A DNA stretch of 38,682 nucleotides from Psammoneis japonica (Eukaryota): positions 97,332 to 136,013 of the forward strand of contig QPGO01000180.1 of assembly GCA_008632985.1 (NCBI GenBank). Reading direction: 5' to 3'. Below the pieces are notes generated by a model. The model made no database searches. It saw only the letters and a program-made list of their open reading frames with translations, and was not told the origin of the DNA. Below are positions 1-38,682 of the stretch, piece after piece; the stretch's first letter is position 1, and every line of letters begins with the position of its first letter. A program made the position numbers and the translations under genes.

Positions 1-16
1 CATCCAGTGCACCATT

Positions 17-932
17 GTGAAGCGCATCCTCGAGCGCCAAAATTTGAAATCAAATTTTGAAACTCAACTGCCGAGCCAACTGCGGAATGGGCTGCCGAGC
101 TTGCTCATGCATGCCCAAGCCCAGCTCCTCTACAAGTTGAAAATTGAGACCCCGATGACCTCCGATGCATTGGACATGATCAAGGAAGTGACATCATACA
201 TCCAATCAACTCCAGACCCATGGTCGGGCACCGACAGGATGCGTTGTCCCTCGGGTGCCCCACTGCCAAGCAATTGGAGACACCAGCAACGTCGGCGGAG
301 GTGCCTGTTGCTGCAAGCTCAAATTTTGGTTCGCTTTTCTTTGGGGACCAAAAATCGCAAAGGGTCTCAGGCTGCGGAAGTCAACGGATCTGGACTGTGT
401 CCATGTCAATGCAGTGGAGTTCATTGTCATCATGCTCAAGTTGGCAGCCATTGTCGTTTGCATGGAGAATGTGACTCCAGAACGGGCGCATGAGTTCTTC
501 CGGGACGGCATCGTCCCACTGCATCTGGTCATCAGAAGTTGCTCAGATGACATGGCATCAGTCAACCGGACAAACAAAGCCACTTCGAAGTCGCCACAAG
601 GGCAGCGATTCATGTGGGTTTTTTGTGAATTGCTGCATCATGCGCGTGCAAACCCAAATGGCGATCACATCTTTGGCAACGAGAATTTTGTCACAGATGA
701 CATCTCACGACCTTCTGTTTTTGCCCTGATCTCGAATCGTCACCATTCTGAACAGCTGTTTCGGAAGCATCCCTTTCTGAAGACCTGGGACTGTTTCCAG
801 CCGAGTCAAGAGCTCTTGCAGCTCCTCTCCTCACAGCTGTCTGCCAAGCACAGAACGGCACCCCAGATCCCAAGCAACTTGGGACAGCTTGTTCCCACCA
901 AATCCATTTCCTCCACTTTTACAAGAGTGTGA
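17..932 (+). pseudogene. DIRS-type RT/RNase H C-terminal region, degenerate
   Basis: ORF 255..932 has GDTSNVGGG, HVNAVE, SDDMAS and HIFGNENFVTDDISR, matching DIRS RNase H motifs (DAS..G.G / HIN.LE / DN / HIPG..N..AD.LSR). Apparent frameshift near 225 relative to ORF 17..493. Confidence 0.75.
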
Positions 933-2527: not shown

Positions 2528-2767
2528 CGTAGCCAAGACTCCAAGCCAAGCAAGGAGAGGACCTCCTTGACTGGACCGAGAGTCACCGCGTGAATGTAGT
2601 GGCAAGATGGGTTGAAGGATGGACAACGGACGAGACGAGCGGAAACGAGGCCAGCCCAAGGGATCCCTCATTGTCTGGCAGGATGGGAGACACCATGGCA
2701 CTGTCGAGGCGTCTCCAAGGAGATGCCAACGATGAAAATTGAAAAACCCACCTCTCCCTCCCCTGCA

Positions 2768-3018
2768 CACAGTGAAAAAGGGAACCAATTGCTTGGCACT
2801 GGCGATTCCAAGCCTGGTCCCACACCCTAATTGCTTCACCTGCTCTAGCGACTATTTGCCATCGTGGCAAACACTATGAGTCTATATACGGATATGAACA
2901 TTACGTATATAATAGACAGCATCCATGTGATTGCATCGATTGATAAGAGACGCTTCCACTGTGCCATGTCATCGGAGTGCAGACAGCCGAGGCGGGGGAA
3001 GGGAATCCGTGGGATTCT
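2768..3018 (+). repeat. direct repeat copy B2 (distal part retains TpA)
   Basis: Aligns with 2281-2527. Confidence 0.92.
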
Positions 3019-3205
3019 ATCCCCCCCGAACCGATCCTGCAAAAGACATACGATTTCCGGTGATTAACTTCTACTAACGGAAACAAAGCATGCAACAGTG
3101 GGGGAAGAGATAACAATCCCCCCATCGACGTATCGGAAGCCTCTCGGCTCTCGGCACATGACAGAGAGGGGTGATAAGCATAATACACCTCACCTCAAGG
3201 AAAAG

Positions 3206-4113
3206 ATGGATGACCTTTCGCATCCCTCACCTCTTTTTCGTAACCTTACTAGGGCTATTCTTCACGGGACTGCGGGAGATGTGCGACATGCCCTGCAACT
3301 AGGCGCTAATCCCAATTCGACGTCTCCTGACAATTATGATGTCTCACCGATTTTCTTGTCATGAGCTCTCCGAGCATAAACGACCGTGACGAAAAGATTC
3401 AGGCGTTACTGGACGCTGGAGCAAGTTTGGCAAATAGTGAGCGCTACCGTGAAACACCCTTTCACTTCGCGTGTAAGCTTGGCTATGTGTCAACCGCACA
3501 AATTCTACTGACAGCTGGTGCCCGAGTTGACGAAACAAACAGCAATGGCGACACTGTTTTGCCTATTGTCATCAATTTGGATGTGGAAAGGCAGCGTGAT
3601 ATTATTATGCTTCTTTTACGGAATGGGGCAGACGTAAATGCAAAGACAAGTTATGGGCATTACACACCGCTTCACTTAGCCGTGATGCGTGGGAGAGTTC
3701 AGACGGCTCGCACGCTTTTGCAGAATGGAGCGAGCGTGAATGAAACGGATGAAACTGAATGCACGCCGTTACACTGTGCCAGGGGAGGCACGGTAAAGTT
3801 GCTGCTCGAACACGGGGCCGACGCAAATGCTCTCGACGAGCGTGGCCGCACGCCATTGGATCGTGCAATCTCAAACGGAAGGCGCCACGAGACATCAATT
3901 ATCTTGGAATTTCTGAGCAAGCAACTGTTGACACGAGACAACGTACACCCTTGTCTATGGGCGCACGTGTTGGCCAGGGTAGGGACGAGCAGTACGGACG
4001 ACTCGACTGTGAGCCTTTTTTACTCGTTGCTTCAAGATTTGCCAGATCTATTTGCTTTCAGACATGCTGGTAGGAAAAGGAAGCGACCCGATCATTTCGT
4101 TCCTGGTCTATGA
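3206..4113 (+). CDS. ankyrin repeat protein (apparent 1-nt frameshift near 3352-3360)
   Basis: ORF 3361..4113 has TPFHFAC, TPLHLAV, TPLHCA, GRTPLDRA and LL..GADVNA repeats plus a C-terminal RKRKRP NLS-like motif. The upstream ORF (MDDL...LQLGANPN...SPIFL) supplies another ankyrin repeat in a different frame. Confidence 0.85.
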
Positions 4114-4374
4114 AGCGTCTGGAATGGGTCGTTATGCTTCTGTTGCTTGGTGGGGCATTCCTGGCATACAATACAGAGTAGTATTATTGTCTTGCGGCAG
4201 AGATCACTTTCCGACCATCTTATCCTGGTCGACAAAGGAGGAGGCATGGTCGAAACAAAATGTTGCGTATTTCAAAGTTGAGTAACGTTTGTTCAAAAAT
4301 CTATAGGGTAGACTGGAAAAGTGAATAAGTAGATTCTGTATCTTCGTGCCGTAAAGGCTACCTTTTAGAGAGAG

Positions 4375-5364
4375 CTATTCGTGAAGTCCCATCAGACGGG
4401 CTTTTTCTAGAAGCAGCTTGTATTGTAGTACCGTTGGCATGTCAATCATCAGGCCTTTGAAGCTAAACGCACCCTTCCCTTCCTCTTGGTGCTCTTCAAA
4501 GGCATGGACGACTTCCGATGCATGTTTGATTGATTCTTCTGTTGGTGAGTACGATTCTTGCACCGGCGCAATCTGCGCTGGGTGTATAACCTGCTTTCCA
4601 GAAAAGCCTTGCTGAAATGATCTTAACGATTCCCTAACCAGCTGCTCTTCATCTCGAAAGTCAATCTTTACAATATCAATCGATGACACGCCGTATGCGG
4701 CCGCATGCATCAAGCAATAGTTTCGAGGAAAGTCCAACTCATCATTCGACGTTGTTCTAGTGGCACCCACAGCGGACGCGTAGTCGTCGCCTCCAAAAAT
4801 GACAGCATCCATTCGACTCGGACACGCCGAGCATATTTCTTTCATGTTGAGCATGGCCTGTGGTGATTCAATCATGGAAACGATACGTACATCGTGTGCA
4901 CGGTCACCCAAGGCATCAAGGTGCTCTGCTACACGAAGGACTGTTTCTGCAGACTCTACTTTTGGTATCACAATACCATCTGGTAGAACTCTATCAGTAG
5001 ATTCAGAGCGAATGGTAAGACGACGAAAGCAACTCTTCGGTGACTTGATAATTCGTCTTGCTTTTCGGGACACTCACTTGTTCTGTACAACAGCTTCCAA
5101 GTCTTTCTTTGCTAGATCACCTGTTTCAAACCCATTAATTCTCACCAATCGTTCTGTCCGTCCAAAGTCAACATTATTGAGGGCCTGTAGAATCCCTTCT
5201 CGGGCGTCTTGCTTTTTGTTCAGTGCCACGCCATCCTCCATATCCAAACAGGCACAGTCAAGGGTTGGATGAGACGAAGCTTTGGCTATCTTGCGAACAT
5301 CAAAGCCTTGCAGATACAATAGAGCACGACGAATTCTCGGGGCTAGTGTTGCAACAGCCGACAT
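4375..5364 (-). CDS. HpcH/HpaI aldolase / citrate lyase beta-subunit-like (CLYBL/CitE family); exons 5364-5078 and 4990-4375, 300 aa
   Basis: RRALLY, CLDMEDGV, RLVRIN, IVIPKVES, MIESPQA, IFGGDDY, GKQVIHPAQI and MIDMP motifs. The GTGAGT...TAG intron 5077-4991 joins the two ORFs in frame. Confidence 0.92.
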
Positions 5365-6011
5365 GGTAAAACTAATAAAGTGTCTACCGTGTGTATTCTC
5401 GTTCTGCTATCGCCGCCATGCATTTGGCATTGGCGATGTGGGCGACGGCAAAAAACAACAAGAAAAAAGATCCAGAATCCAGAAAAGATTCGATGAGGTC
5501 GCGGATTTGATTCTGCGCACGCGATCTCAGAATAGAACGCTGGCAGATGGGCTGGACCATGCATGCGAGAGCCTTCATTGTACCGGCATGCTACCGGCAG
5601 ACCTAAGTCGTCAGGGCGAGCGGAGAGTATGGCTCTAGAGCCTCTACTCTAGCTAGACCTGGCTATAGAGTATAGAGTGCACCTACCTTATGCTTTATCA
5701 TCAGCATGCCAGAGCACAAAGCGATAATTGTATTTATCTAGCTACACTCTAGTAGGAATACGAAGTTTGCAAGAAATTGGAAATTGCCATTTCTGTCTCA
5801 TCAAGACCACGAGGACGTCAGTTCTCAACACGATTCGATGGAGCTCGCCACGAGGTACTAATTGCTGTCTATAACCTTCGGCGAAGAGAAAGAATTAATC
5901 GAACACGAAGTTGACTAATTTTTCTTTCATGCGTCACACAACATGGATCCTTGACGAATGACCCTTTCTTCCACTCATCCAAGTACACAGTACAAACTTG
6001 CCCCAATCCTT

Positions 6012-6965
6012 TCATACTTCAATGACATACCCATTGGCCTCAGCGTGTTGGAATTTCTGATTGACAATCTCTTCACAGCTCAAGGTTTCGGCCACTTGGA
6101 CGAAACCGTCCTCGCTTTGCAGGCTGCTCTGTTGACTTGCATTAGTTTCTGGTGTGGATGCATAACTCCTCGCTCCACTCATCTGATTCTCCTCTTTATA
6201 AAGTCTTGTAATGGCCAATATACTCGTGCCAAAGTTCTGATACCGCTTCTCCTTAATTCCGTTGCAGGCCATGAGCTGTGATTTCGTTTGCGGCAGGCGA
6301 ACAGTAATGTCATCCAAGGTGGTATCGTTGAAGATACAATAGGGTGCCACATCTAGTCTATCCGCAAAGGCCAATCGTAATTGTCGCAGGCGTTCTCTCA
6401 GGCCTTTGCGGTTCTGAAGGAGTCTAGCCCGTTCCTCCTTGATGCGAGGATCAGGCAGCGCAAGATCTGCTTTGAACGAAGCAGAAACGCAGCGCTCGTG
6501 GTAGTAGAAACGGCTGTATCTATGATACCTAGGAACAAAAGCCATTTTTCCGACTCTCATTTCGCCTTTGAGAATCGGTTTCCCGCACTGGCGGCATTTT
6601 GCTTGATTGTTCGGAGAAGGTTCCAAAGTGTCGCTACCGGCTCTGACTTGCCTTGAGGGCGATGGACTGCTGGAATATGCAGACTCGCTCTTTACAACAG
6701 GTGACGAGGATGCAATGTGTAATGATGAAGATGATTGAGAGGAGCACACGACTTGAGACGCTGGCGTTCTCAGAAACTTGGCAACGGCCTCTTGCGCGTC
6801 CGAAAGGCATGGAGGTGAATACACTGTTTTGATCCCACTCGAGCCTTTCACTTTTGGCCCCTTGATCTTGCACATCCAATGACCCTCTTTGGGGCCGCCC
6901 GTAGCCCTCACAGGCTTAATGGTTCCATGATGGCCGCAGTTGGTTTGGAAGGTGAAGTCGGTCAT
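6012..6965 (-). CDS. PARP-type zinc finger + HRDC domain protein
   Basis: EPSPNNQAKCRQCGKPILKGEMRVG...YHERC (zf-PARP) then LRQLRLAFADRLDVAPYCIFNDTTLDDI...LPQTKSQL..CNGIKEKRYQNFG (HRDC). Single 317-aa ORF. Confidence 0.85.
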   Translation of the reverse strand: MTDFTFQTNCGHHGTIKPVRATGGPKEGHWMCKIKGPKVKGSSGIKTVYSPPCLSDAQEAVAKFLRTPASQVVCSSQSSSSLHIASSSPVVKSESAYSSSPSPSRQVRAGSDTLEPSPNNQAKCRQCGKPILKGEMRVGKMAFVPRYHRYSRFYYHERCVSASFKADLALPDPRIKEERARLLQNRKGLRERLRQLRLAFADRLDVAPYCIFNDTTLDDITVRLPQTKSQLMACNGIKEKRYQNFGTSILAITRLYKEENQMSGARSYASTPETNASQQSSLQSEDGFVQVAETLSCEEIVNQKFQHAEANGYVIEV

Positions 6966-7273
6966 GGTCTTGTTTTTTTCTTCGCCCTCTGCGTACCGTA
7001 GTCATTGCTTCTTTTTCTCGCCGCCGCCTGTTATTCACGCACAGGCGAACGCGCGACTTGATCGCGCGGGCCAGAACGGCTGTGCGTCGTACGTCTGAAG
7101 ATGTGCTCCGTCCGTCCTCCGCCAGTCGCTCGATCCTCTTTCCGCTGCGATGCGATGTGGCTGATGGCCGCAGCACGCAGCATGGGCCATGGCGTATTAT
7201 ATCTCTTTTTAGCGGCAGCCACCTCTTCCACCCCCACAACTGCAAACAAACAAAATTCACAAACTAGTGTATT

Positions 7274-9150
7274 ATGAATAAATTGATTGGACTGATAGCC
7301 GCTTTGGCGGTCCTGACAAGAACTCGTTTTGTCAACTCGTTTGTTGTGACAAGCGCTGGACGACGACCTGCTTCTTTGCAGCATGCCGCAAGCCGAACTA
7401 CGTGCCGTCGAGCTACTGTAGAATCAGACAATACCGCTGATGCGATAGCTACATCTCCACTGGAGAAGAACGTTTTGGAAAAGATGTCTTCCAATGCAAA
7501 GGCCGCTAAGGAGTGGGGAGACATGTTTGATTTGCCGGATGAGATTTCTTTCTATGCTCTTTTTGCTGCTCTGCGGGAAGGAGCTCAGCTTGGACTCAAG
7601 GGAAAACCGCTCGTATTGAGAAAATCCGATATAATCAAGAGTATTCATGATGTTAGTGATAAAGGTGTTGAAGGATACTTTACGATGGAAGATTTGGAAA
7701 CCGCTGTTACCGAAGACTTTTTGGATGCGGATCGAGGATCAACCGACAATCGGAAAGGCTGGACGGTCCAATCGGTTTCCACTCCTCGTGGAAATTCCTT
7801 TGAAGAGGCTCGGATGACCTTTGAAGAAGTGCAAACTGCTCTAGAGAAGGGTACTGTTATCTTTAATGCATGCGGCGCTCACATTCCAAAGATGGCCGTG
7901 CCACCTTGGCGTGCACCGATGCTACCAGTCTTCCGTGTGCGGCCAACCTCTACGTGACGGCATCGGGGAAGCGCACCAGTGCTCCACCACATACAGATCG
8001 TCAGGATGTTGTGGTTGTACAGACATCTGGAAAGAAGCACTGGCGTGTCTATTCGCCACCAGACCCGTCTCTCAAGCCATCAGCGGACTGCTATGCGCGA
8101 GGAAAGTGGACGGACAATCTGCCCCTCTATGCACTCGAGTCAGAGATGGGTTGTGAGCTCTTGTTGGAAACTACTCTGGATGTTGGTGACGTGTTGTTCA
8201 TTCCAGCAGCTTTCCCACACACCACCGACACGGTCCATCCGGACTGCGAGGATAGCAAGGATACCAGCATCCATCTACGTTTAACTTTGAAACTCACGTT
8301 TGGGATCTCGACTATCTGAGTGCACGAAGGCTCGCACTCCGTCGCGCCTGCGTCTCTGACTCTGCCTTGGGACAAATGAGTGACGAAGAAAACAAATACG
8401 TTGGAAAGGTAAACATGCTGCCATCTCAAGTGAGAGACGATTTGTTTGAAGCGCTCCCTCTTGGGCTGTTGGAAAATGATGAGCAAGGAAAGGCGCTGTT
8501 GGACCAAGCAAGCTCTGAACTAGAGCGTATTAGCAAGGCTGTTGATCCTGAGACGGCGGCTGCGGTGCCGAGTAGCGTCTGGAAAGAAACAATGGAACGG
8601 CTTCGTCAACAGGGTATGGAATTGTTTGACATTCATCGGGACATGTACTTGGCCGCCATTGAGGAAGGAAGAACACGAGAAGCTGAGGATGCCATGACGG
8701 CGCATTTAGATAAACCAAAAACAATGACTGAGGAGCGAATGCGTCGACTGAATGTATTTCGAGTGCCACGATTCTATGATAAGGTGACCGAGAGTAAGCA
8801 ACAACTTACCGAGTGGTCGTATGCTGGCAAGCCAGTCGATGACTCGGGTACCGGAAGCGCAAGCGCAGCCCTACCAGAAAATTGGGCATTTACAATGCCC
8901 ATCAAGGTAGGAGATCAAGTGAGGCTGACCTTGGAGGAGCTTCTTTCCAGCTACAGTGACGAGAGCATCAGCTGGCGGCTTTGACGTTCAGTTCTTTGAC
9001 GGGGATAAGGAGACTGGATTGGATCGAAGTATGCTCAGGCTATTAACGCCACCAGCAGACCCCGCGGCTAGTAATGTTGACACTTCTGGAATGACAAAGA
9101 AGCAACTGAAGCGCTGGAAGAAACAACAAGAAAAGTTAAACAAAAAGTGA
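7274..9150 (+). CDS. JmjC/cupin 2-oxoglutarate oxygenase (RIOX/NO66/RoxA-like), probably plastid-targeted; several apparent frameshifts
   Basis: ANLYVT...APPHTDRQDVVVVQTSGKKHWRVY and LDVGDVLFIPAAFPH give the H-x-D...H metal ligands. Hydrophobic N-terminus followed by VNSFVV resembles the ASAFAP motif. Pieces 7274-, 7870-, 8367- and 8956- lie in different frames. Confidence 0.8.
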
Positions 9151-9229
9151 ACGCGATTCTTAAGTCATGCATTTTTAATCAGTGACTTATTAGTGTACAC
9201 GCATACTATGAAATAATGGCGGCTTTCTC

Positions 9230-10390
9230 TTAGTAGATCTCCGCCGTCAAATTCCCTTGACTCTGTAATTCATTTTCGTCCCCTCCTGCGTCGAAAAACA
9301 TGTCTTTTGTCAAAGAGTCCTGCGGATCTCTCCCTACTGGCTCAGTCTCCGCTTTTGCCGGCCAAAAGGAAAAACTGGTGCGACTTTGTTCGCTAACGTT
9401 CATCTCTTCTTCCTCCGGAATTTTGGATACACGTCGCTCTACGTCCACAGGAGCAGCCACCACGACTGCCTCTGGTATTTCGTCTGTTTCTGCGACACTA
9501 TCGTGGTAATTTGACGGCACCGAGTCGCCCTCCTCATTTGCTTCAGCGTTTTCTTCATCTTCTTCGTCCTCTTCTTCATCATCATCCTTATCTCGACGCC
9601 AGAAAAATAAAAAGGCAAAGAACCCTTGTTTTTCTTTTTCCTCAGGTTCTTCCTCGATCTTTTTGTTCTTCTCCTTTTTCGCACGAACAAACATAGGCTC
9701 TGGTTTCGGTATAACACAAAGAAAGAGACTTACAACAAGATAGCATGCGCAAGACGCAACGGCATAGGCAGCTCCAATTTCAAAATCGCAAGGATACGAG
9801 CCCTTTCCGAGGGATTCTCCCGGGTTTTGACTACGGTAGTAAGCGAGCATATCATAAACTTGATGATGAGCAAAGCATACGGTACTTGTTCCATACTGTA
9901 GACATAAAACAGCACGTCTGATAATATCGGACCACAAGATCCAGTACTCACCAAAAATCACTTGCAAACAAGAATCCGGTAAGAGATATACCGACCGCAG
10001 CAAAGAAGAACAGTGTGCATTCTGCACAACGAGCGCCCTTGAATCGACAGCACGTAAACTCTATCAGCAACAAGAGCAGCCCGGCAAGCCCAATGCGTTC
10101 CCAATGGCAATCCCGATTCGACCCGTCGTCATCTGCCAGCTAAGATCATCTTTTTCTTCATCATTCATGTTTCTGCAGCTTTCGCCTTCCAATTCAATTT
10201 TGAAGAGACCCAAGTTCCCAGACGTCACATTTCTGCCCCCAAACTCAAAGTTATCGTCATTAGCCGGTTCCAGGCTGAACGTAGTAAATTCGCACGTTAG
10301 TAATGCCAAAATACTCAGCACTAGAGCAGCAATGGCTGTGGTCAAAATTAAAACTCTACAGTGAACGCAAGCGACATCACGGGACAACAT
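9230..10390 (-). CDS. multi-pass membrane protein with acidic C-terminal tail (claudin-like topology); exon structure unresolved
   Basis: TM1 (LILTTAIAALVLSILALLTC), GNLGLF..C loop, further hydrophobic segments (IGAAYAVASCACYLVVSLFLCVI) and an E/D-rich tail, across ORFs 10064..10390, 9730..9954 and 9230..10027. Confidence 0.6.
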
Positions 10391-10926
10391 AAAAAAATTG
10401 TGTGAGATCTACTCGTGAAAATCACGTGATTGATGAGAATCACCCTCGAGATAACTCACTGGACCCAGACTTTACAATCCAACATACAGCTTTTGCAACA
10501 TCCCATGTTAGAATCCTACACTGCAATAACAAGGTGCCATGGACGACGGCTTTGCGACTTCAACACCCAAACTCGGACACTCGCCCTGCCTTTGGAAGCG
10601 TTGAACATGATACCGGTATATGTGGCAGGTGGCAGGTGGCAGTCATCAGTCAGTCATGTCAAATGATCAGATAACGGCACGGACATTCTCAGTGAAATTT
10701 ATAACATATACTACATTGGTAATATAGGTGAGTTAAAATGATATCCACATTTTAAAATAAGACGAGTTCAATGAATATATAAATAGCCTTATACAAAATT
10801 TGTGGATATTGAATTTCCAAAAATCAAAGATCCAAAATCTTCAAACATCACAAGAAAATCGAGAAAATCTGAAATTCTGATGAACCTGCCAGCTGCCAGC
10901 GCTATCAACGAGAGAAACGAGAAACC

Positions 10927-12492: not shown

Positions 12493-12822
12493 TGTGAAGT
12501 TTTGATTTTAATAAGTTTTCTTGTGCTCCCTCCCTTGTTGTTTCTCCCCCCAAAGTCTTCGCAATTACCATTTATTGCTCGAAGCAGAGCGTTCCTGAGA
12601 TCGCACCCACGTCTCGGACATTGTTTGCAGTTCAATTGAGAGCGACTCTCCCCAACTTCTACCTACTGCTACTCTAGCTAGAGCTAGAGAGAGTAGCTAG
12701 ACGACTCTCTACATACTCTCTACTCTACGATCGCATCTTAGAAATACTTCCGTCCGTCTTCGTCCGGGCAGAAGATTTTTGCGCGCATTTTTCTCTTACT
12801 GCTGCGCTCACAACGAACGACC

Positions 12823-14872: not shown

Positions 14873-14999
14873 AGGGATGCAGTCTTTTGAGTGGTTCACC
14901 AAATACAATGAAAACCAGTAGTGTCTACTCCAGATAGTTTTTAGTTTCTACTTGTGTTCGTTTTACTATTTGCAAACAGGGAGAAAGACTCCCAAAAAA

Positions 15000-28267: not shown

Positions 28268-29755
28268 ATGAACGCCTCGAAATCCACCTCGAAGTCCTCC
28301 TCGGAAACCGCATCGAAATCCGCATCAAGATCCGCATCGAGATCCGCCTCTAAGGCGTTGAAGAGCACGGTTACGAAACTCTTAGTAGGCAGCGATGATG
28401 AGTTGTCGTGGGAGGAACTGTGCCGCATCGAGCGCCGTCGACGTGCAATTCTGGAACGAACAGAGCTTCCGTTCTTTCGCATTCTCTGCTTCTGGGACGG
28501 CACCGTTCTAAATGCATTATTTCACGATCCACTCATGTGGATTTGCATGATACTCTACGTCGGCGTCCGGCTTGGAGCAAGGCTCGGTGGGCTACCTGAG
28601 TTCTTCTCTGAACTAGGCGGTGCAGACATTGCAAGCATTGGAGGTTTTCTCATCTTCTTTTTGGGTACGCTGTATATTTTTGCCTTGTATTGTGGTTCAA
28701 TCGCCTTCCATTTGGGCTAGAAGCTAAACGCTGATTGTGTTGTTTTTCTGTTTACAGTATTCTTTGTTGTTTCCTGCAACAAGAGGTTTGATTCACTCTA
28801 TGGTCACTCAATGTCCTGTGAAGGACGTATCTTAGATGGAGCGGGCATCGCGAAGACAATCATGCCGAGAGATAATGCCTTTCGTTTCATCCGCTACATG
28901 AATGCCTTGGTAATATGTACTTTGGGTTTACTGATGCATTGATTCGGCTGGTCAAGGCTCTTCCTCGAGGTGGCTAATACTGTATTCTTTTTTTCTTATC
29001 AGCATGTTGCAGGGTATGTAGGCCTGTCTTCCACCTACACATTCAACAATTTCTTTGTAGAATTCAACAAGGCTAACCGAGTACTTACGGAAGCGGAGAT
29101 GGATCGTTTGCGAAAGATAGACGTAAATATGGGTGGTTCGGCCTATCGAGAACTTGTCACATGGTGCTTGGCCGAAGTAATTACGGCCTTTGAAGCAAAA
29201 TTGATTGATAATCGTCAGAGAGGCTTGCTATTTGGTGTCGTCCTCAAGCTTCGCGAGTCACTGAAAGTGATGTATGACATGGACGACCAACCGGTCAGCT
29301 TCTTCTACCTTCACTTTATCTGCCTACTCACGGCGATCTACCTCCCTTTGTTTGCCATCTCTGCTGCTCTCAATGCTGGTAGTGGCGATGAAGCACATTG
29401 GTTGAACGACATTCTTTCTGGTCTCATTGTGTTCTTGAACTGCATCTTCATCATTGGTCTTCGAATACTTGGACAGAAAATGAGTGATCCGTACGGCAGC
29501 GATGTGGAAGACTTGAGTGTTTTGCACTATGTAACATTCACATGGAGGATGAGCAGGCGCATGCTCGAAGCGGAGCTTCCGAAACCCATCGATCCCAAGG
29601 AAGAAGCAGCGCTTGTCGCCGAGAGTCAAGATTTGGTAGAAGGCGAGGCTTGGGAGGATCCATATTACGAAACAGACGAAAGCAATCCAGAAGACTTTGA
29701 CGATGAAACTGACGCTGAATCTCGTTCTTTGTATGACCGTTTTCTGGGTCGTTAG
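28268..29755 (+). CDS. bestrophin-family anion channel; exons 28268-28664, 28758-28909, 29003-29755 (433 aa)
   Basis: FWDGTVL, FLIFFLVFFV..CNKRF, QPVSFFYLHFI and MSDPYGSDVEDL motifs. Two GT-AG introns give a continuous 1302-nt frame. Confidence 0.88.
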
Positions 29756-30206
29756 GCTTTAATGCGGATGTAGTGAATCTAGGCCTAGTATGGAACTTGG
29801 AATGATGCATAATGCATAGCTGTTTGAAAGTTTTGTTCTCCGCTCTGCTAAAACGATAAAAAAGCTATGGTACTGTAGGCAAAGACAAATGCCGACAAAG
29901 GTTCTGACAGGGCTTTCTGCTATGATGTGAGTTTGAATCATTGAATTCTTTTGGGTCTTGGCCATAGCCGGGTAAAGCAAGCAAAAGCATAACCGGCGGA
30001 TTCCGGTAACCGCGGGCCGGATTTTCGATTCTGTTTTTGCGTCTATCCGTCATCATTTTTTGGCTCTTCTCGCTTCTATGTTTCAAGCGAACTTCCGTAC
30101 CGGTGGTATCTCCAGCTAGAGAGATAGGCTGTCTACTCAGAACTGCAGCAGAAAGTTTTTGTGCACTGTTCCATGGCAATGAACTTTTCTGCTACGGCCG
30201 GAGCTG

Positions 30207-30349
30207 ACTGTTGTAATTTATCCTTCTGGTGACTATTTCAGAGCCACCTCAGTCCTCTAAGGTCTGATCCTGAGGCTAAAATAGACAAGCTTGTTATCAC
30301 AATACTTTCTAAGAGTTAAAAGAGAATAATGACTGCTTCCATCATCGGC
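30207..30349 (-). mobile_element. solo LTR-like copy of the copia family at 34619
   Basis: Reverse complement aligns with 34620-34759, with a long identical core, and ends ...ttacaACA. No clean TSD found. Confidence 0.75.
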
Positions 30350-31830
30350 TGTTTTGTTCACTGCAGATGAGATTCTCTTCATTTATGCTCCGAATATTTT
30401 ATTCTGAGCAACGCTTTATATTTAAATTATCCCGACACAATGTGGGACATTCAGAGCAAATAAGAGTTAATTAAGGCGATAACGCCCACGCAGAGCACAA
30501 TCAGAGTCACCCCTGTGGTAGGGGAGAATATGGTGATGTCATGGTTACGTGGCAGTTTATATCTTATTCATTGTATTTTTATATAAATGTCCTCACATAT
30601 ATTTATGCATTTGTACACAAATGCTAATAGTAGCAGGAAAAATCCTGAACCATGTTCTCCCCTAAAACTCTAACCACCAAAAACCGAGGGGTCGGAAGCG
30701 CACTTTTGGGAGCTCTTTTTCTCCGCACAAAAAACACGCGTTTCGTCGACTCGACCATGACGACCTCCCGTTCTTCGTCCCCCACACCACCTGACGTGTC
30801 CCCGCCTGCCACATCTGATGCGGCAGTCCCTCCTGCATTGGCCGGTGCCGTCACACCCGCTGTCGTTGCCCAAACACAGCCGATTTGCCATCCGGAGGAT
30901 TTGGGCTTCTGTTCGCCGGATCCTGTGCCTGAAACACAAACACAGCGCCGTGATTGGTCCACTCCTGTCATTGCGTCCCCGGAAAAACTGGATTCTCATT
31001 CGCATCGCCGTGTTGTGGAAGGTGCTGATGAGCCTTCTCTCAAACGGTCTGGGGTGCAGCTCCGAAACCAAACCGACGTCAAGGTTCAGTGGGCGTGGCA
31101 GAGGAGCATCTATGACAGGAGGTGTGGTGACAACCTTTCTCAGGATGATTGTTCCTGGGCAGAACCTTGTCTGTCTGGAGGTGATTGAGACTCACCCAGA
31201 GCCCAGCGGAACCAATCGGAGCCAACAACAAGTGTCAAGATGAACCGCAGCAACATGTGAAGGAGGACGCAGCCAATGGAATGCGGGCAGAGAAGGTGCC
31301 GGCATGCAAAGTGGCAGCATGGCTGTCGACAAGGCACTGGTTTTGAAGGTCTGACAGTGATGAACACAGTGAGCATTTGCCAAAAGCATGTTGCTGCCTG
31401 CCTCCATTTCAGCAACATGCAAAAACAGCACGTTGTGCATCACATGCAGAATTCAAACGGCGAGAGTGGCCTCTTGTGGAACTGCACACAACGACCCAGT
31501 CCTGGAAAATGGAGTGGTGTCCAAGTCACATGCACCACTTGAAACCTTGCCAAGTCGCCTGCAAACAAATGCCAATTCGCTGACCTCTCCAACTTGAAAC
31601 TAAAAAACTGTGAAGGCATGCCTGCCATCCAGTTGTCATCAGGTTTCTAAGTTGCAGAGAGCTGCATGATGTGTCTGTACATTCTAAAGATTAGACTGCA
31701 CTCGAGAGCCAACCAAGAGGCACCATTCATGTCCATTGATGTGTCGTCCATCAGCAGGCCGTGGCTGCGTGGGTTTCCTGGCCCGCCGTCATCCGCCATC
31801 CATTGTGTTCCTTCCAAAGCAAAAACAACA

Positions 31831-32708
31831 ACAGCATCAACAGCGACTGCAGCAGCAAGGGCAGGATTGACAGTGTCGGGCATGCTGGGGGGCCGAAACG
31901 CAGGTGCGGCGTTGGAATTCGTGACAGTGTCTGTGGGAGGCGGTGGGGCGAGAATGAAAGAAGTGTGAGTCATTGGCATTTTATTGTGGACGTCATTGGC
32001 AAAATGCAATGACGACGCGTTCCAGGTCTAGGTGGGACCTCGCACTACTGAACTGTGACATCGATGGTTTTTTGAATCACGTCGTATGTCGCGCACGTAG
32101 ATTTCTACGTGATTTTTTCGACATTTTGTGTCATTTTACGGTACACTTATTGAGCGATCCGTCCAACAACTTTTGACATTTTTTGTTACAGCGCGATTCT
32201 ACAATGTCTTAAGAATCGCGTAGGGCAGGCGCATTTGCAAAAACGTCAAGTGGTAACAGGCATAATTGCACCACAAACTTGGCCATTTATTTGATGTTGA
32301 AGTTAAACATATATCCATTAATTAAATTCTCGTACTACGGAGCTCGCACGTAGAATTCTACGGGCCCAATGTCACACGGAGTCCCACCTAGGGCTGGAAC
32401 GCGTCTGACAGCATCAACAGTGCCTGCGGCAGCAAGGGCAGGAGTAACAGCATCGGGCATGCCAGGGGGCCGAAACGCAGGTGCGGCGTTGGAATTCGTG
32501 ACAGCATCTGTGGGAGGCGGTGGGGCGAGAATGAAAGAAGTGTGAGTCATTGGCACTTCATTGTGGACGTCGTTGGCAAAATGCAATGACAGTGTCAACA
32601 GCACCTGCGGCAGCAAGGGTGGGAGTGACAGCATCGGGCATGCCAGGGGCCCGAAACGCAGGTGCGGCATTGGAATTCGTGATGGCATCTGTGGGAGGTG
32701 GTGGAGCG
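31831..32708 (+). repeat. ~181-bp tandem repeat (about 2.6 units) split by a MITE
   Basis: Units at ~31831-32013, ~32408-32590 and ~32590-32708 share gccgaaacgcaggtgcggc(g/a)ttggaattcgtga. Confidence 0.88.
32014..32405. mobile_element. 392-bp MITE with 25-bp TIRs and 4-bp TSD (TGAC)
   Basis: GACGCGTTCCAGGTCTAGGTGGGAC at 32014-32038 and GTCCCACCTAGGGCTGGAACGCGTC at 32381-32405 (23/25 match). TGAC at 32010-32013 and 32406-32409. Confidence 0.9.
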
Positions 32709-34618
32709 TGCAAACAACAGTGTGAGTTTGCAGCATCTTGTTTTGTGCGCATCACACCCACGAGAACTGGAACAATGACATCACCTGTTGCATCAGTGTC
32801 ATTGGCAACGGTGTCAGCAGGATCGGCGTCCTGGGAAGGCGATGGGGAAGAACCACGAGGCATCATCATGGTCGAGTCGACGAAACGCGTGTTTTTTGTG
32901 CGGAGAAAAAGAGCTCCCGAAAGTGCGCTTCCGACCCCTTGGTTTTTGGTGGTTGGAGTTTTAGGGGAGCTGTGGAACAGGAATTTTTGCTTGTGGAACA
33001 TGCACATTCGTGTGCACGTCAACATTAAAACTCAACGCACGGTGAAGCCGTGCGTGCACAACCATGCACACACACACAGCTCCCCTGCCACAGGGGTGAA
33101 TCAGAGCAAATTTGGTTGTTCGGAGCCACAGAATTTTGTTCAGAGCATTGCACGCAGAGCATCAATTTGCAAATTAGAGCATTGTGCTGACATTCAGAGC
33201 GCTGCTGTGATTGTGTCCATTCAATCAGAGCACAACTCTGAATGATGTTTGGATGCCCGTGGAATCTCCATTTAATTGGAGCAAAGCTCTGAATGAACAA
33301 CGGACATTTGGCTAGAGCAAAGCTCTGAACAAACAACGGACGACGACAGCCTCTCCATTTAAACAGATCACAACCATGAACAAATTTGCTGATGCTCTGA
33401 ACAACTGTCATTTACGAAGCTGTGCTTCGATTGACTCTGTCAACAAACACATCCACCAAACCCTGACTGTGCCGGTGAAATCAATCCCAAGCAATTGTGT
33501 GTCACATTGCGTCGTGCGCATGTGTTGCATTGCCTTGTCATTTGTTGTTGTTGTTTCGGGTTGTCCTTTGGCGCCGTTTGTCAGATGCAGCTGACATGGT
33601 CTTTTGACAACACTGCACACACAATGCAAACCTGCAATTGCAAGAACCATTCAATGCGTTCATGCAAACCCAAACTGCCTTTCTTTGTCCAACCTTGCAA
33701 CTGCTTGATCCAAAAACAACATCACACTTTTCGCCACAGCACTTTGCAGGGAACAGTGGGTTGGTTTTGAAGCACACTTGAGCAAAATATTTTCTGTCAT
33801 CTTGATGGACCAAGGCATGGAACAAGTGAGCCTCCTCGCACTTGCACTGCAAACACAAACAAACAAACACAATTGGTTTGCGTGCGTGAACAAGACAACA
33901 CAACAACAGGCATGCCAAATCAACAATGACGTTTGCTCCATGCCTGCAAATTGCAAGCAGTTGTTTGATCCACTTGAGCCACAACGAGTGTTGTGGTTTT
34001 GTGTGTGCGCTTGTTGTTTGCTGTCTTTGTCTTTGTTGCAAACAAACAACAAAGTGAGAGGTGATGTTTCCAAGACACTGCGCACAATCCGCACGACTTC
34101 ACCATGCATTCTCACCGCTTTGTTTTGCAATGGATTTAACAATGGTTTAGAGTGGTTGGCTGGTTGAGTCTGCAAAAGAAATGCCATCATGACACACATT
34201 GAATGCCGTTAGATCAACTTCTCAATGGCAATCCGGAGCACCAACAATGCTCTCACCTTTTCATTTGCGCCATTTGCCATTGTCTCTTTGACCTTTCTCA
34301 TTGCAAACAACAATGGCTGTGTGAGACGTGTCCGATGAATTGCACAATTGGCTGCAAAACAATGTGATCTTACCATCTTCTGTGGTGCTCTCTCTGGCAT
34401 TTCAGCAACTGGGGATGGTTGAGTGTGGCATCCAGCAATGACGCCCCAAAGTGGTCAGAGCAATTGTTTCATTTGCAACTGGAGCACCGACAATGCTCTC
34501 ACCTTTTCATTGTTGCCACTGTTGGAAATGGTGAATTAAAAGTTCAAACACTGAAATTAGACAGTGCGAAGAAGACGCATGCGTCAGCGCTCATGTGCTC
34601 TACGTGAGGCACTGAAAC

Positions 34619-37600
34619 TGCCGATGAAAGCAGTCATCACTCTCTTTTGACTCTCAGAAAGCACTGTGATAACAAGCTTGTCTATTTTAGCCTCAGGATC
34701 AGACCTTAGAGGACTGAGGTGGCTCTGAAATGGTCGCCAGAAGGATAAATTACAACAGTTAAAAGAGAACAATCCAGCTGAGAGCTGTGAAAAGAAAGTG
34801 AGAAAGAAAAGAGTCATTCTCACGGTGTGTGAGACATTTTGCTGCTTTGCCTTTTTGTCATGAGTGGAAGAGGCAAAGGTGGAAATGGCAACAGAAGCCA
34901 AGGAAGAGGACCCTCAGGAAGGGGCAACAAGAGTGGCAAGCAAAGCAACAAGGGCATCAATGATCATGTCCATCATGTTGGAAGTGCCAAGCAAGCATCT
35001 GATTTTCAGATTGCTGCTGAGTTCATCATCAACTACATTGAGAAGACTCATGAGTTTGGAAATGACATTGCAACTGCACTCAACACTTTCACTCCATGTG
35101 ACATGAGTTCTAAGAAGCCGACTTTGCAGGTCAGCTTGACTGGAGATGACAAGGTGGACGTGCCATTGAACAAACAGCATGAAATTGAGTTCAAGACAGA
35201 ATTTGATGCTCACATTAAGAGGACCCAAACTTGTGAGAACAACCTCATCAAGGCTTGTGCTTTGCTCTGGGAGAGATGCTCCAAGGCCATGAAGAACAAG
35301 ATTCAAGCAAGAACCGACTTCCAAGCCAAAATTGAAAACGATCCTGTCGAATTGCTCAAGGCCATTAAGGAGCATGCATTGAACTGCCAAGAGCACAGGT
35401 GTGACATGGCTGTCATCTCAGATTCAATGAGAGCAGTGCTGGAAACCAAGCAGAAGGAGAAGGAGAGTCTCCAAGATTGCACCAAGAGATTCAGGGTTGC
35501 AAGGGACATCATGAAGTCTCACATTGGAGGACCAATTGTCCTCACCAAGGCAGTGCAAGGCATGTCAGAATGTGACGAGCACAATGCGGATGCTGTCAAG
35601 AAGTGTCAAGAAAAGGCATTCAGCCAATTGATGGGTTACATGTGCTTGGAGAATGCAGACCAGCGCAAGTGCGGATCAATTCTAACAGGATTGAACACTC
35701 AGCAGTCCCTCAAGAACGACCAATGTCCCAAGTCCATTGCGGAAGCCAACACGGTGTTGAGCAACCACACTTTTGACTGCGTTGGTCAGCCTGACAACCA
35801 CCGTAACAGGAACAATCGAAACAACAACTCTGGCTCCAAGAAACAAGAAGAAAACCAAGAAATCACGCTGTCCTTCGCTCAGTTAGAAGGGAGGTGTCAC
35901 TGCTGTGGCAAGGCTGGACACAATTCCAAAAATTGCTGGGAAAGGAAAGGAAAACCTCAAGCAGAATGGGCCATCAACAAGGCCAAAGCTAAGGAAGAAG
36001 CAAGCAACGCTCAAGCAAGTGACGATGCCAGCACAGCCAACTCTTCTGCCAAAGAATCCACTGGAACAAAATCCACCGTTTCAGGATGGGCTGGCACGCA
36101 CATCGATGCATCTCTCTGCCAGGATCAATCTGGCAACATGAGAGACTGGATTTTATTGGACAACCAGTCCACAACCACAATCTTCTGCAATGAGAAGCTC
36201 GTCACAGACATCCGTCCATCGGATGAAGCCATGCGTTTGCACACCAATGGCGGAGTCCTAGTCATGACACACAAGGCCACGGTGCCAGGGTTTGGTGAGA
36301 CTTGGTTTGACCCAGATGCAATCACCAACATTTTTGCTTGCTCTGACATGAAGAAGAAGCACAGAATCACAAGTGATTCTAAGCAAGACAACGCATTCAC
36401 CGTTCATCTCCCCAACAAGAAGGTTGGGTTCGAGGAGGACGGAAAAGGGCTGCATGTTTACAAGCCCAAGATTGACGACACTGGAGCTCAGCTCCAATTT
36501 GTGCAGAGTGTGGAAGAGAACAAGAAGTTCTACACTCCACGACAGTTTGAGAAAGCCAAGAGGGCCAGGGAACCATTGCACGCGTTGGGAAACCCAACCG
36601 TGAACGATCTGAAGGCCATCATTTGCGTGAACAGCATCAAGAACAATCCCGTCACAACGGAGGACGTAGATTTGGCCGAGAAGATTTTTGGACCAGACAT
36701 TGGAAGTCTAAAAGGCAAGGCAACAAGGCAGAAGCCAGACCCAGTTGTAGAAAACTACGCAGAGATCCCGAAGGAGCTCATTGCAGCACAGCACAAGGTC
36801 GCTCTTTGCCTGGACAGCCTCAAGGTGAATGGATTGCCATTCCTCACCACAGTGTCACGAAACATTTTTTATTGCACGGCACAACCGCTCAAGGACTTGA
36901 CCCAACCAACTCATCAAGAAGCTCTGGAAGATGTGCTGCGAGTCTGCAACAAGGCCGATTTGAAGGTCACACGCATTCATTGCGACAACGAATTCAGGCC
37001 CATTGGGAATGCACTAGAAGACAAGTTTGATCTCAAGGTGAACTGTGCAAATGCTCAGGAGCATGTCCCAGAAGCCGAAAGAAACAACCGAGTTATTCAA
37101 GAACGTGCCAGGGCAGTCTATCATCAGCTGCCATTCAAGCATCTGCCAAAACTCATGGTCGAAGTCATGGTCACCGAAGCTGCTAAGAAGCTCAACCATT
37201 TTCCAGCCAAGCACGGCGTTTCCAAACATTGCAGTCCAAGAATGATTCTCCATCAAAAGAATCTAGACTGTGACAAGAGCTGCAAGATCACGTTTGGCAC
37301 TTGTGTGCAAGCTCACAATGACCCGGACCCCAAGAACACCCAAGAGTCATGGACCTTGGATTGCATTTGTTTGCGCCCCACCGACAGCAACCAGATTGGA
37401 CATGAGTTGCTGCACTTGCAAACCGGCAAGAAGATCACTCGTCGCAAGGTCACCCCTGTGCCCATCACTCCCGCCATCATAAAGCAGGTTCATCGTTTGG
37501 CTGAAATGAACAAGATGCCCAACGGTCTCAAGATTCAGAACCGCACTGGAACTGTTTTGTACGACAGTGCTTGGCTTGCAGGAGTGGATTGTGATGAAGA

Positions 37601-38682
37601 TCAATTTGAAGACGAAGATTGTGATCTAGAAGAAGACATTGAAACTGAAGACGATGAGGAAGAAGAGCTAGACTGGGGAGACTGCGACAGAGTTAGTCAA
37701 GAAGAGCTGCAAGACACAACTCGGGAACAAGAATTGGATGAAGAAGCCAGCTGCATCAGCGAACAACAAGACGAGACTCAAGAAGAAACCTCCAATGATG
37801 AGCATCTCGGAGACAATGACGAAGTTGGTTCTCAACCATCAGACGGCAGCGGAATCTCACAAGAAATCGATGACATGATTGACCACATTGATGAACAACA
37901 GAGGCTGGAACAAGAGAAGGAACACTCTCCGGAAGTGCAAGAGATCATCGACGAAATGAAAGACCTGGAATCTGATGACGAATCTGGAGAGGAGCAGAGT
38001 GAAACCGAAGAAAGTGTCCAAGAAGAGCCTGTTGCTACATCCAGGGCAGGAAGGACTCTCAAACCTCCAGTTAGATTGGGAGACTGCCAATGCCATCTGC
38101 AGACTCAAGCCCATTCACAAGAAGAAGCGCGCAGCTTGGAGATGGCCAGAATCATGGCCATGACAATGTGCCAGTGGAACGAAAAGGTTAGCATGATTTC
38201 CACTGATGAAGAAGCACACCAATTTATTCAGACTTGCAGCTTGGCACGAGGACTCCAGAAGTTTGGAGAAGAAGGCCACAAGTCGGCAGTGTCAGAGCTG
38301 AAGCAAATCCATGACAGAGTGGTTTTCAAACCCATTCACATCAATGACATGACTCCTCTGGAGAGGAAGAGAGCCATGGAGAGCCTCATGTTTCTCACAG
38401 AGAAGAGAGATGGACGAATCAAGTCAAGGTTGTGTGCAAACGGAAGCACGCAACGAGAGCACATGGACCAAGACGAAACCGCCAGTCCGACAGCATCCAC
38501 AGAATCTGTTCTCATTGCAGGAGTGATTGATGCTGAGCAAGGCAGAGACGTTGTGACAGCGGACATCCTGAACGCATTTGTGCAAACGGACATCGAGGTC
38601 AAGGATGAAAAGATCATCATGAAGATCCGTGGAAGGATGGTGGACATGTTGCTGGAATTGGATTCAGACACTTGCCAGGACT
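34619..38682 (+). mobile_element. Ty1/copia LTR retrotransposon (diatom CoDi-like), 3' end outside window; putative 5' LTR 34619-34757
   Basis: TG...CA-bounded ~139-bp segment duplicated at 30207-30349, followed by a gag-PR-IN-RT polyprotein in copia domain order. Confidence 0.92.
34860..38682 (+). CDS. copia gag-pol polyprotein; open frame of 1274 codons running off the window, hypermutated and probably non-functional
   Basis: Hand translation from ATG 34860 found no stop (absent from the ORF track because it has no stop in the window). Zn knuckle CHCCGKAGHNSKNC, protease WILLDNQST, integrase IHCDNEF and EHVPEAERNNRVIQER, RT start KRDGRIKSRLCANG, ASPT, ADILNAFVQT. Confidence 0.9.
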   Translation, partial: MSGRGKGGNGNRSQGRGPSGRGNKSGKQSNKGINDHVHHVGSAKQASDFQIAAEFIINYIEKTHEFGNDIATALNTFTPCDMSSKKPTLQVSLTGDDKVDVPLNKQHEIEFKTEFDAHIKRTQTCENNLIKACALLWERCSKAMKNKIQARTDFQAKIENDPVELLKAIKEHALNCQEHRCDMAVISDSMRAVLETKQKEKESLQDCTKRFRVARDIMKSHIGGPIVLTKAVQGMSECDEHNADAVKKCQEKAFSQLMGYMCLENADQRKCGSILTGLNTQQSLKNDQCPKSIAEANTVLSNHTFDCVGQPDNHRNRNNRNNNSGSKKQEENQEITLSFAQLEGRCHCCGKAGHNSKNCWERKGKPQAEWAINKAKAKEEASNAQASDDASTANSSAKESTGTKSTVSGWAGTHIDASLCQDQSGNMRDWILLDNQSTTTIFCNEKLVTDIRPSDEAMRLHTNGGVLVMTHKATVPGFGETWFDPDAITNIFACSDMKKKHRITSDSKQDNAFTVHLPNKKVGFEEDGKGLHVYKPKIDDTGAQLQFVQSVEENKKFYTPRQFEKAKRAREPLHALGNPTVNDLKAIICVNSIKNNPVTTEDVDLAEKIFGPDIGSLKGKATRQKPDPVVENYAEIPKELIAAQHKVALCLDSLKVNGLPFLTTVSRNIFYCTAQPLKDLTQPTHQEALEDVLRVCNKADLKVTRIHCDNEFRPIGNALEDKFDLKVNCANAQEHVPEAERNNRVIQERARAVYHQLPFKHLPKLMVEVMVTEAAKKLNHFPAKHGVSKHCSPRMILHQKNLDCDKSCKITFGTCVQAHNDPDPKNTQESWTLDCICLRPTDSNQIGHELLHLQTGKKITRRKVTPVPITPAIIKQVHRLAEMNKMPNGLKIQNRTGTVLYDSAWLAGVDCDEDQFEDEDCDLEEDIETEDDEEEELDWGDCDRVSQEELQDTTREQELDEEASCISEQQDETQEETSNDEHLGDNDEVGSQPSDGSGISQEIDDMIDHIDEQQRLEQEKEHSPEVQEIIDEMKDLESDDESGEEQSETEESVQEEPVATSRAGRTLKPPVRLGDCQCHLQTQAHSQEEARSLEMARIMAMTMCQWNEKVSMISTDEEAHQFIQTCSLARGLQKFGEEGHKSAVSELKQIHDRVVFKPIHINDMTPLERKRAMESLMFLTEKRDGRIKSRLCANGSTQREHMDQDETASPTASTESVLIAGVIDAEQGRDVVTADILNAFVQTDIEVKDEKIIMKIRGRMVDMLLELDSDTCQD

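Follow-up and report, generated by a model that had tools for sequence, protein, structure and literature searches.

What removes a single dinucleotide from some parts of a chromosome and leaves it in the genes alongside? The question is raised by a 38,682 bp stretch of the diatom Psammoneis japonica (assembly GCA_008632985.1, contig QPGO01000180.1, positions 97,332 to 136,013 of the forward strand), referred to below as the window, in which blocks of mobile and repetitive DNA are almost free of TpA and rich in TpG and CpA. A preliminary description of this DNA proposed a mutator that acts on repeats and turns TpA into TpG or CpA, a 'reverse' form of fungal repeat-induced point mutation (RIP), and knew of no earlier account of such a process. 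The present analysis retains one part of that interpretation, namely a mutator that converts TpA to TpG or CpA in mobile DNA at the DNA level, and gives up both the RIP-like, repeat-triggered framing and the novelty. The explanation that we favour, with a probability of about 70%, is a domain-targeted, TpA-specific A:T to G:C hypermutation of transposon DNA in which adenine is deaminated, preferably where C or T comes after the TA.

TpA loss and its direction

The whole window contains 914 TA and 1672 CG dinucleotides. When the ratio of observed to expected dinucleotide frequency (o/e) was profiled in 1 kb sliding windows, TpA fell to 0.01–0.2 at 1–2500, 18000–27500 and 30500–38682, compared with 0.45–0.75 in the genic stretches. 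For pooled counts, a depleted set (1–2827, 18200–27890, 30672–31999, 32410–34530 and 34761–38682; 19,889 bp) was compared with a genic set (2828–18000 and 27900–30200; 17,474 bp). The depleted set holds 123 TA (o/e 0.10), with values of 1.67 for TG, 1.64 for CA and 0.52 for CG, whereas the genic set holds 702 TA (o/e 0.60), with values of 1.13, 1.14 and 0.96, respectively; at the genic frequency, about 800 TA would be predicted for the blocks. The depletion, which had been claimed for three stretches with genes of ordinary TpA content between them, is confirmed as real and far beyond chance. The remaining twelve dinucleotides are nearly equal in the two sets, and the combined gain of TG and CA (+0.066 of dinucleotides) approximates the losses of TA (0.034) and CG (0.024) taken together. 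Depletion of CpG coincides with the TpA-depleted blocks, a point absent from the preliminary description. Between TG and CA, the skew lies at −0.01 to −0.04 for four blocks and reaches −0.18 for Copia. The blocks and the two coding elements that they hold are as follows.

1–2827: TpA-depleted block 1, with 16 TA, 262 TG and 283 CA; it continues past the left end of the window, and holds a putative recombinase pseudogene
752–2188, + strand: hypermutated open reading frame (ORF) of a predicted tyrosine recombinase, Crypton type, in which the catalytic Tyr reads His
18200 (approximate start)–27896: TpA-depleted block 2, with 54 TA in 9691 bp (18200–27890) and CpG o/e down to 0.12
30672–34536: TpA-depleted block 3, with 7 TA in 30672–31999 and 13 in 32410–34530; interrupted by a miniature inverted-repeat transposable element (MITE)
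34761–38682, + strand: TpA-depleted block 4, a predicted Copia-type long terminal repeat (LTR) retrotransposon with a polyprotein frame at 34833–38681

The polyprotein frame of block 4 stays open for 1283 codons, after which the window end cuts it. It is about 50% identical, across 99% of its length, to RVT_2-bearing diatom polyproteins of 1600–1650 amino acids; its best named relatives come from Fragilaria crotonensis, Nitzschia inconspicua and Epithemia, in agreement with the diatom host that had been proposed. The RVT_2 match (27.3 bits) lies below the cut-off of 31.6, the domain being truncated by the window end. From this match and the full-length similarity, 34761–38682 is classified as a probable Ty1/Copia LTR retrotransposon, and a tblastn search of the window, for which five Copia polyproteins served as queries, detected no further Copia. 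After alignment of the frame with 37 relatives, 415 columns conserved at 80% or more were available for comparison, of which 347 are intact and 68 differ. Of the 26 columns with conserved Tyr, 25 have lost it (to Cys in 17, to His in 6, and to Arg and Leu in one each), compared with alterations in 43 of the 389 conserved columns of other residues. At second codon positions, A has become G after T (Tyr to Cys) in 17 of 26 conserved codons, whereas the corresponding change is found after A (Asn to Ser, Lys to Arg) in 1/54, after C (Gln or His to Arg) in 0/31 and after G (Asp or Glu to Gly) in 0/48. The frame contains 0.62% Tyr, 3.35% Cys and 3.51% His, compared with medians of 4.05, 1.23 and 2.6% in 120 listed relatives.

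The loss of TpA is mutational, directional and specific to A preceded by T. The process also appears to have been fast, because the frame is still open despite the loss of nearly all of its conserved Tyr residues. Two candidates were tried and rejected: a natively TpA-poor composition or selection against UpA is ruled out by the Tyr columns and by the copy comparisons given below, and GC-biased gene conversion is ruled out as contexts other than TpA are unaffected in the Copia columns. Error-prone repair synthesis of the pol-eta type in heterochromatin (WA to WG), which had been put forward as one option, yields A-to-G changes where the A of an A:T pair has T or A on its 5′ side. However, the AA context is spared, both in Copia (1/54 compared with 17/26 for TA) and in the metagenome locus described below (0.14 compared with 0.49), and this explanation is scarcely credible.

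The same change was found in the ORF of block 1, which is unrelated to the Copia frame. It has 655 homologues at E ≤ 0.001, which are stand-alone proteins of about 360 amino acids. Pfam Phage_integrase is matched by 21 of the 39 aligned homologues (best E 7.6e-6), the family profile matches the catalytic C-terminus of Cre (residues 284–329, E 0.015), and conserved His-x-x-Arg and Tyr columns are visible in the family alignment. Judged by these similarities, the ORF appears to carry the tyrosine-recombinase catalytic domain by which a Crypton is recognized, and Cryptons of this kind have been described in a diatom (PMC3212892, in the part of the paper available). A Crypton, unlike DIRS-type retroelements, has no reverse transcriptase, and it carries short terminal direct repeats. 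Pfam matched no reverse transcriptase in the ORFs of 1–2873, although the sensitivity of Pfam is lowered by hypermutation and the element continues beyond the window. Conserved Tyr is altered to His or Cys in all five columns, the invariant catalytic Tyr included, and the Tyr content is 0.21%, compared with a median of 2.98%; together with the Copia columns, this substantiates the claim that conserved Tyr codons of transposon proteins had been replaced by those of Cys and His. Seven of the nine first-position A-to-G changes come after a codon ending in T. In addition, three Arg now read Cys and one reads His, which are CpG-type changes. Among 150 listed representatives of the recombinase family, three (P0188, P0210 and P0273) contain 0–0.3% Tyr and 4.4–5.7% Cys; the catalytic Tyr column reads Cys in P0188 and P0210, and P0273 stops before that column. 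Their composition marks them as apparent translations of hypermutated pseudogenes.

Copies, strands and block edges

Duplicated sequences allow the mutated state to be compared with a less mutated one. The repeats concerned are the following.

2279–2527 and 2766–3018: direct repeat pair astride the edge of block 1, 86% identity
17736–18080: unmutated copy, outside block 2, of a unit of roughly 495 bp whose repeats occupy 26518–27608
18602–19736: tandem array of 413 bp units, block 2
26518–27423: tandem array of 495 bp units, block 2

To the right of 2828, the outer copy of the direct repeat (2766–3018) retains TA where the inner copy (2279–2527) reads TG or CA. Similarly, 17736–18080 aligned with 27231–27608 (67% identity) places TA outside block 2 opposite TG or CA inside it. 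Over five such pairs, the less mutated copy has 43 TA sites, of which 16 show A to G and 20 T to C. Where both copies lie within blocks, CA stands opposite TG in 30 of 48 adjacent double differences, and the copies were therefore mutated independently after duplication, in place. Both kinds of opposition, TA against TG or CA and CA against TG, had been noticed in the direct repeats and tandem units, and are borne out by these counts. The inner parts of the long inverted arms (30353–30656 and 32970–34616) gave no convincing alignment.

Both strands are hit about equally, and a retroelement, a recombinase-type DNA element and tandem arrays diverging in place are all affected. These observations bear on editing during retrotransposition, by ADAR on RNA or by APOBEC on cDNA, in which copies would be born mutated. 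Such editing would explain a Copia that is mutated along its whole visible stretch, and ADAR-type enzymes prefer a 5′ U [Discussion of Mettrop et al., bioRxiv 10.64898/2026.01.13.699255; this and later statements about that preprint refer to its available parts]. However, the Copia itself is mutated on both strands (17 Cys and 6 His at Tyr codons), the skew is near 0 elsewhere, the recombinase-type element and the in-place arrays are also mutated, and the edges of the blocks do not follow the ends of elements. We consider this route very unlikely, and agree with the earlier view that RNA editing or reverse-transcription error alone is insufficient. APOBEC3 and ADAR do resemble the process studied here in making deaminase-type transitions with a neighbour preference against mobile or viral nucleic acid, but they act on cDNA or RNA with a single-strand bias, whereas here both strands, non-retroelements and arrays in place are involved.

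The edges of the blocks are sharp to tens of bases. On the left, there is no TA in 2700–2799 and there are eight in 2800–2899, the run of TA beginning at 2828; one TA in 27800–27899 is followed by nine in 27900–27999; and eight in 30600–30699 are followed by none in each of the next four 100 bp bins. The edge at 2828 cuts through a repeat copy and lies 533 bp upstream of an ankyrin ORF, and that at 27897 lies about 130 bp from the start (28028) of the contigs of the RNA-like sequencing run X2. At 30700–31099 no TA remains, yet there are 6–10 CpG per 100 bp, so that the loss of TpA is separable from that of CpG, and faster. Within and beside block 3, the following elements and repeats were found.

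30207–30671: multi-copy element with normal TpA (6–11 TA per 100 bp), adjoining block 3
30657–30782 and 32844–32969: inverted repeats of 126 nt, block 3
31819–32771: tandem units of about 181 bp, block 3
32014–32405: MITE-like insertion within block 3, 392 bp, with terminal inverted repeats of 25 nt
34537–34760: TA-retaining stretch between blocks 3 and 4, delimited by TA positions and arm alignment

The MITE contains about 25 TA in its 392 bp, and its TpA and CpG are normal. In sequencing run X1, for which the mean word depth of 57 on the gene stretch 27832–30208 served as the single-copy reference, the depth bin 31837–32459 that includes the MITE reached 146,143, or about 2,500 times that value, and the bin 29968–30590, which covers part of the multi-copy element, reached 1896. 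This element is the inverted partner of 34615–34759, with arms that are 93% complementary. In the right arm, TA persists in the outer 95 nt, which match the left arm at 98% identity, and the inner part (34615–34665) is partly mutated; the TA in 34537–34760 may be owing to gene conversion from 30207–30343 or to a protected end. The inverted arms measure 137–148 nt (30207–30354 and within 34537–34760). The MITE is inserted at a junction of the 181 bp tandem units, and the coverage of a third, tiny run (X3) is almost confined to it.

That some repeats in and beside the blocks are undepleted had not been noted before. Targeting does not follow repeat homology, because the copies outside the blocks, the MITE and the multi-copy element are spared and the edge at 2828 falls inside a repeat. 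The 'repeat-restricted' reading of the preliminary description, in which duplication marks the target, is not sustained by these observations. The same observations bear on a true RIP-like process, in which recognition of homology, for example before meiosis, would mutate all copies, here with A-to-G chemistry. RIP in Neurospora has a length threshold, under which a MITE of 392 bp might fall. The process studied here is like fungal RIP in that irreversible, dinucleotide-specific transitions inactivate mobile DNA close to saturation, with copies mutated independently (CA opposite TG, 30/48), and only repeat-derived DNA is mutated. RIP, however, makes TpA from CpA, whereas the process here destroys TpA, and the C-to-T change of RIP is not the one found. 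Furthermore, RIP is triggered by duplication and mutates all copies, whereas 17736–18080 and 2828–3018 are unmutated though their partners are mutated, and the MITE and the multi-copy 30207–30671 are untouched; in addition, the main target of the corresponding process in Bigelowiella natans, discussed below, is single-copy and was mutated in asexual lines. A RIP-like origin is therefore judged improbable. The edges and the accompanying CpG loss suggest that the target is a domain of silenced chromatin, and not duplication as such.

Read depth and a metagenome counterpart

A sharp-edged pattern arranged in blocks would also be expected of a modification domain, and one alternative is an artefact in which a long-read basecaller would take a base modified at TpA, in silenced DNA, for G or C. 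Contigs of run X1 over 22241–27859, the most depleted part, have word depths of 47–68 and differ from the window by 1–4 letters per contig of 263–806 nt, compared with about 32 TA per 800 bp predicted at the genic frequency. Since the TG and CA forms are present in 31-letter words at full depth, the reads are probably accurate, which would exclude noisy long reads. Accurate reads with TA at these sites had been named as the outcome that would overturn the proposal; the X1 contigs, whose platform is not on record, instead carry TG and CA. A few differences do fall at residual TA, where X1 reads CA at 24723 and 25214 and TG at 26185 (among 40 of 408 differing places), and these may represent ongoing mutation, a second allele or assembly error. 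Several further differences consist of CA or TG in the window read as CG in X1, and, at places covered by many copies, T or A is found in other copies in place of the C or G of the window (for example, at 20868, 20956, 20978, 21176 and 21179). Miscalls arising independently on each strand would be expected to generate CpG, which is instead depleted, and the same signature occurs in an unrelated metagenome contig and in the three public protein predictions described above. A basecalling artefact is unlikely, and the modified-base version of it can be given very little weight.

The depth of 50–200 found for 21869–27475 at 90% likeness might be taken for low copy number, but was rejected as proof of it, because independently mutated copies would diverge by about 10% and so fall below that likeness. 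An ORF within this stretch (23093–23671) has one relative, which is assigned to no family. Run X2 is RNA-like in showing one 93 nt GT..AG skip at 28663–28757, although no listed run is recorded as RNA. It is almost without cover in the blocks, and missing cover is no evidence of silence. At 20623–21245, X2 has a depth of 450, contributed by a related copy in which T or A stands at 20868, 20886, 20910, 20956, 20976 and 20978 instead of the C or G of the window; this copy may be a transcribed, less mutated member of the family.

Metagenome contigs were scanned with the recombinase alignment, which yielded 80 loci. One of these, L024 (2768 nt), has TpA o/e of 0.08, TG+CA of 1.71 and CG of 0.57, whereas the other 79 have TpA o/e of 0.49–0.86. 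L024 aligns over 2.4 kb with the TA-normal locus L016 at 75–78% identity, and the 106 TA sites of L016 read TG in 51 cases, CA in 38, TA in 7 and other letters in 10. From L016 to L024, A has become G at 0.49 of TA sites, compared with 0.06–0.15 in other contexts (0.14 for AA), and T has become C at 0.36 of TA sites, compared with 0.07–0.11 elsewhere. An excess at TpA over other A-to-G contexts, on which the proposal had been made to depend, is thus found in both this locus and the Copia columns. The balance of the two products varies with the flanking base: TG and CA number 19 and 6 for TAC, 3 and 6 for TAG, 18 and 5 for CTA, and 12 and 20 for GTA, and TA is retained most often when A comes after it or T before it. 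Survival of TA within the window, taken relative to genic contexts and sorted by the nucleotide 3′ of the target A, is 0.37 where this is A, 0.23 where it is G, 0.11 where it is C and 0.056 where it is T, ratios that assume ancestral contexts resembling those of genic DNA; the mirror-image values for the opposite strand agree, and among residual TA, TAA and TTA are enriched and TAT and ATA are depleted. From survival by 3′ base, the preferred target is TA followed by C or T. Another metagenome contig, L080, has TpA o/e of 0.04–0.2 at 801–1800 beside TA-normal sequence (0.6–1.0), and may provide another environmental case, one in which a block edge is included.

Proposed adenine deamination and its known counterparts

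The closest known counterpart is found in the chlorarachniophyte B. natans, for which a mutation-accumulation experiment has been reported (Mettrop et al., bioRxiv 10.64898/2026.01.13.699255). In that work, 231 of 302 mutations fell in one giant-virus and one virophage insertion, and 230 of those 231 were A to G or T to C, all at TpA, at rates about 1000 times the background and in some lines only. The main target was single-copy and was mutated in asexual lines. The genome contains 124 clusters of windows that are poor in TpA but rich in CpA+TpG, reverse-transcriptase and DDE domains are over-represented among its low-TpA coding sequences, and an ADAT2-like DNA adenine deaminase was proposed as the candidate. 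The statement that no description was known is therefore superseded, and for diatoms our literature searches, papers on diatom transposons included, found no report of a TpA-erasing signature. As far as the available parts of the preprint allow a comparison, the two cases share A-to-G and T-to-C changes confined to TpA, both TpG and CpA as products, confinement to mobile or foreign DNA beside normal host DNA, and a long-term footprint of scarce TpA alongside elevated CpA+TpG, in clusters and in coding sequences where reverse-transcriptase and DDE domains are over-represented. They differ in the host, a diatom (stramenopile) here and a rhizarian there; in the targets, which are transposons and arrays here and giant-virus and virophage insertions in B. 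natans; and in degree, the loss being near-saturating here (o/e 0.01–0.2), compared with a Rho of 0.45 in the B. natans giant-virus region. The process is known here from its footprint alone, whereas in B. natans the rate was measured per generation; on the other hand, the coincident CpG loss, edges mapped to tens of bases and a derived flanking preference belong to the present case. Within these limits of the source, the diatom would add a second case, more extreme and from a different supergroup, to a phenomenon for which a single report, of 2026, exists.

The mechanism that we propose can be set out as follows. The blocks would consist of diatom transposon-derived DNA, and the chromosomal DNA itself would be mutated quickly to near saturation. 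A TadA/ADAT2-like deaminase would convert adenine in DNA to hypoxanthine, which is copied as G; deamination of A on the top strand would give TpG, and on the bottom strand CpA. The target would be a chromatin or silencing domain, the enzyme would prefer TA followed by C or T, and ordinary CpG decay would be overlaid on the TpA hypermutation. Its role would be the irreversible inactivation of mobile DNA, by the same process as in B. natans. The A:T to G:C, TpA-specific mutator of chromosomal DNA envisaged in the preliminary description corresponds to the core of this scheme, with the Copia counts (17/26 after T and 1/54 after A) in its support. Decay of 5-methylcytosine likewise produces TG and CA and has taken place in these blocks as well (CpG o/e 0.52), but is unable to remove TpA, and 30700–31099 is free of TA with CpG intact. 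Natural TadA and ADAT enzymes deaminate A34, which follows U33, in the anticodon loop, within UACG in bacterial tRNA-Arg. They and the TadA-derived adenine base editors convert A after U or T to inosine, read as G, and the 3′ C preference of TadA (UACG) resembles the TAC/TAT preference here, by analogy only. Unlike the chromosomal target proposed here, the natural TadA/ADAT2 target is tRNA, and we are aware of no demonstrated case of a natural DNA adenine deaminase that is targeted to chromatin.

Several points weigh against adenine deamination of silenced domains. As TpA is palindromic, A to G cannot be separated from T to C on the other strand, and adenine chemistry is thus a proposal. Domain scans of the ORFs in the window matched no deaminase family, in line with the earlier remark that no causal gene was evident there, and chromatin targeting is drawn solely from the edges and the CpG loss. 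In the pair comparisons, A to G also occurs after A (13/55) and after G (13/64); these off-context counts stem mainly from the pair at 67% identity, where the direction is uncertain, and are distrusted. Run X1, with its unrecorded platform, may be the source of the assembly and would then lend no independent support, its force against noisy-read miscalls coming from depth alone, and the depth of 21869–27475 at 90% likeness does not prove low copy number. Finally, the signature is present in only 1 of the 80 metagenome loci, and among the 120 listed Copia relatives none is Tyr-poor (all have at least 3.0% Tyr), so that the process is not general among diatom-like elements.

The palindrome leaves room for thymine chemistry, in which a TET/JBP-like oxidase would turn the T of TpA into 5-hydroxymethyluracil (5hmU) or 5-formyluracil, pairing with G and giving T to C. 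In dinoflagellates, thymine hydroxylation is enriched at TpA and is linked to repeat silencing; we know of no 5hmU pathway in diatoms. All of the context counts, from Copia, the pairs and L024, fit T to C before A equally well. However, nothing in the window bears on an oxidase, and the TAC/TAT preference matches TadA-type enzymes, if only by analogy. Thymine chemistry is therefore considered unlikely, although less so than the other alternatives weighed above. Adenine deamination remains the preferred explanation, and with it a broader idea can be stated tentatively: diatoms and chlorarachniophytes, on the parts of the B. natans report available, might possibly share an old chromatin-guided DNA adenine-deaminase system, in effect a natural A-to-G base editor favouring TA before C or T, that puts transposons and integrated viruses permanently out of action by removing their TpA, a proposal that we regard as rather doubtful.

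If the hypermutation is as proposed, diatoms would be the second lineage, and the first among stramenopiles, with TpA-specific hypermutation of foreign DNA, and the process would be able to reach saturation on transposons. The mapped edges and the preference for TA followed by C or T provide criteria against which candidate enzymes can be tested, and comparison of genomes with and without the signature could lead straight to the gene. Should the enzyme prove to be a DNA adenine deaminase, the laboratory adenine base editors would have an equivalent in nature. Were the old shared system real, mutagenic genome defence would extend beyond fungi as a stramenopile–alveolate–rhizarian trait, active in some lineages only and detectable in metagenomes. 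Annotation is affected in practice as well. As TAA and TAG stops are lost, ORFs become inflated and pseudogene frames pass gene callers, Tyr-less pseudo-proteins enter public databases (P0188, P0210 and P0273), and homology tools miss hypermutated elements: when 87 ORFs of the depleted blocks and block edges were searched with Pfam, RVT_2 was the sole transposon-identifying match (1/87). Other Pfam matches among these ORFs (E 0.001–0.05) were taken as chance, and an Rfam scan of the window gave no matches.

The genes between the blocks are of ordinary eukaryotic kinds and encode ankyrin, an HpcH-type aldolase, a protein with HRDC and a PARP-type zinc finger, a cytochrome P450, a branching glycosyltransferase and a bestrophin; the best protein match of the cytochrome P450 is 87% identical. 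In the host gene at 6012–6965 (− strand), the PARP-type zinc finger, a DNA-break sensor domain, stands together with the HRDC domain, and no link to hypermutation was shown. The ORF at 12823–13620, of no known family, contains two tandem units of 69 bp, 97% alike, at 12829–12964.

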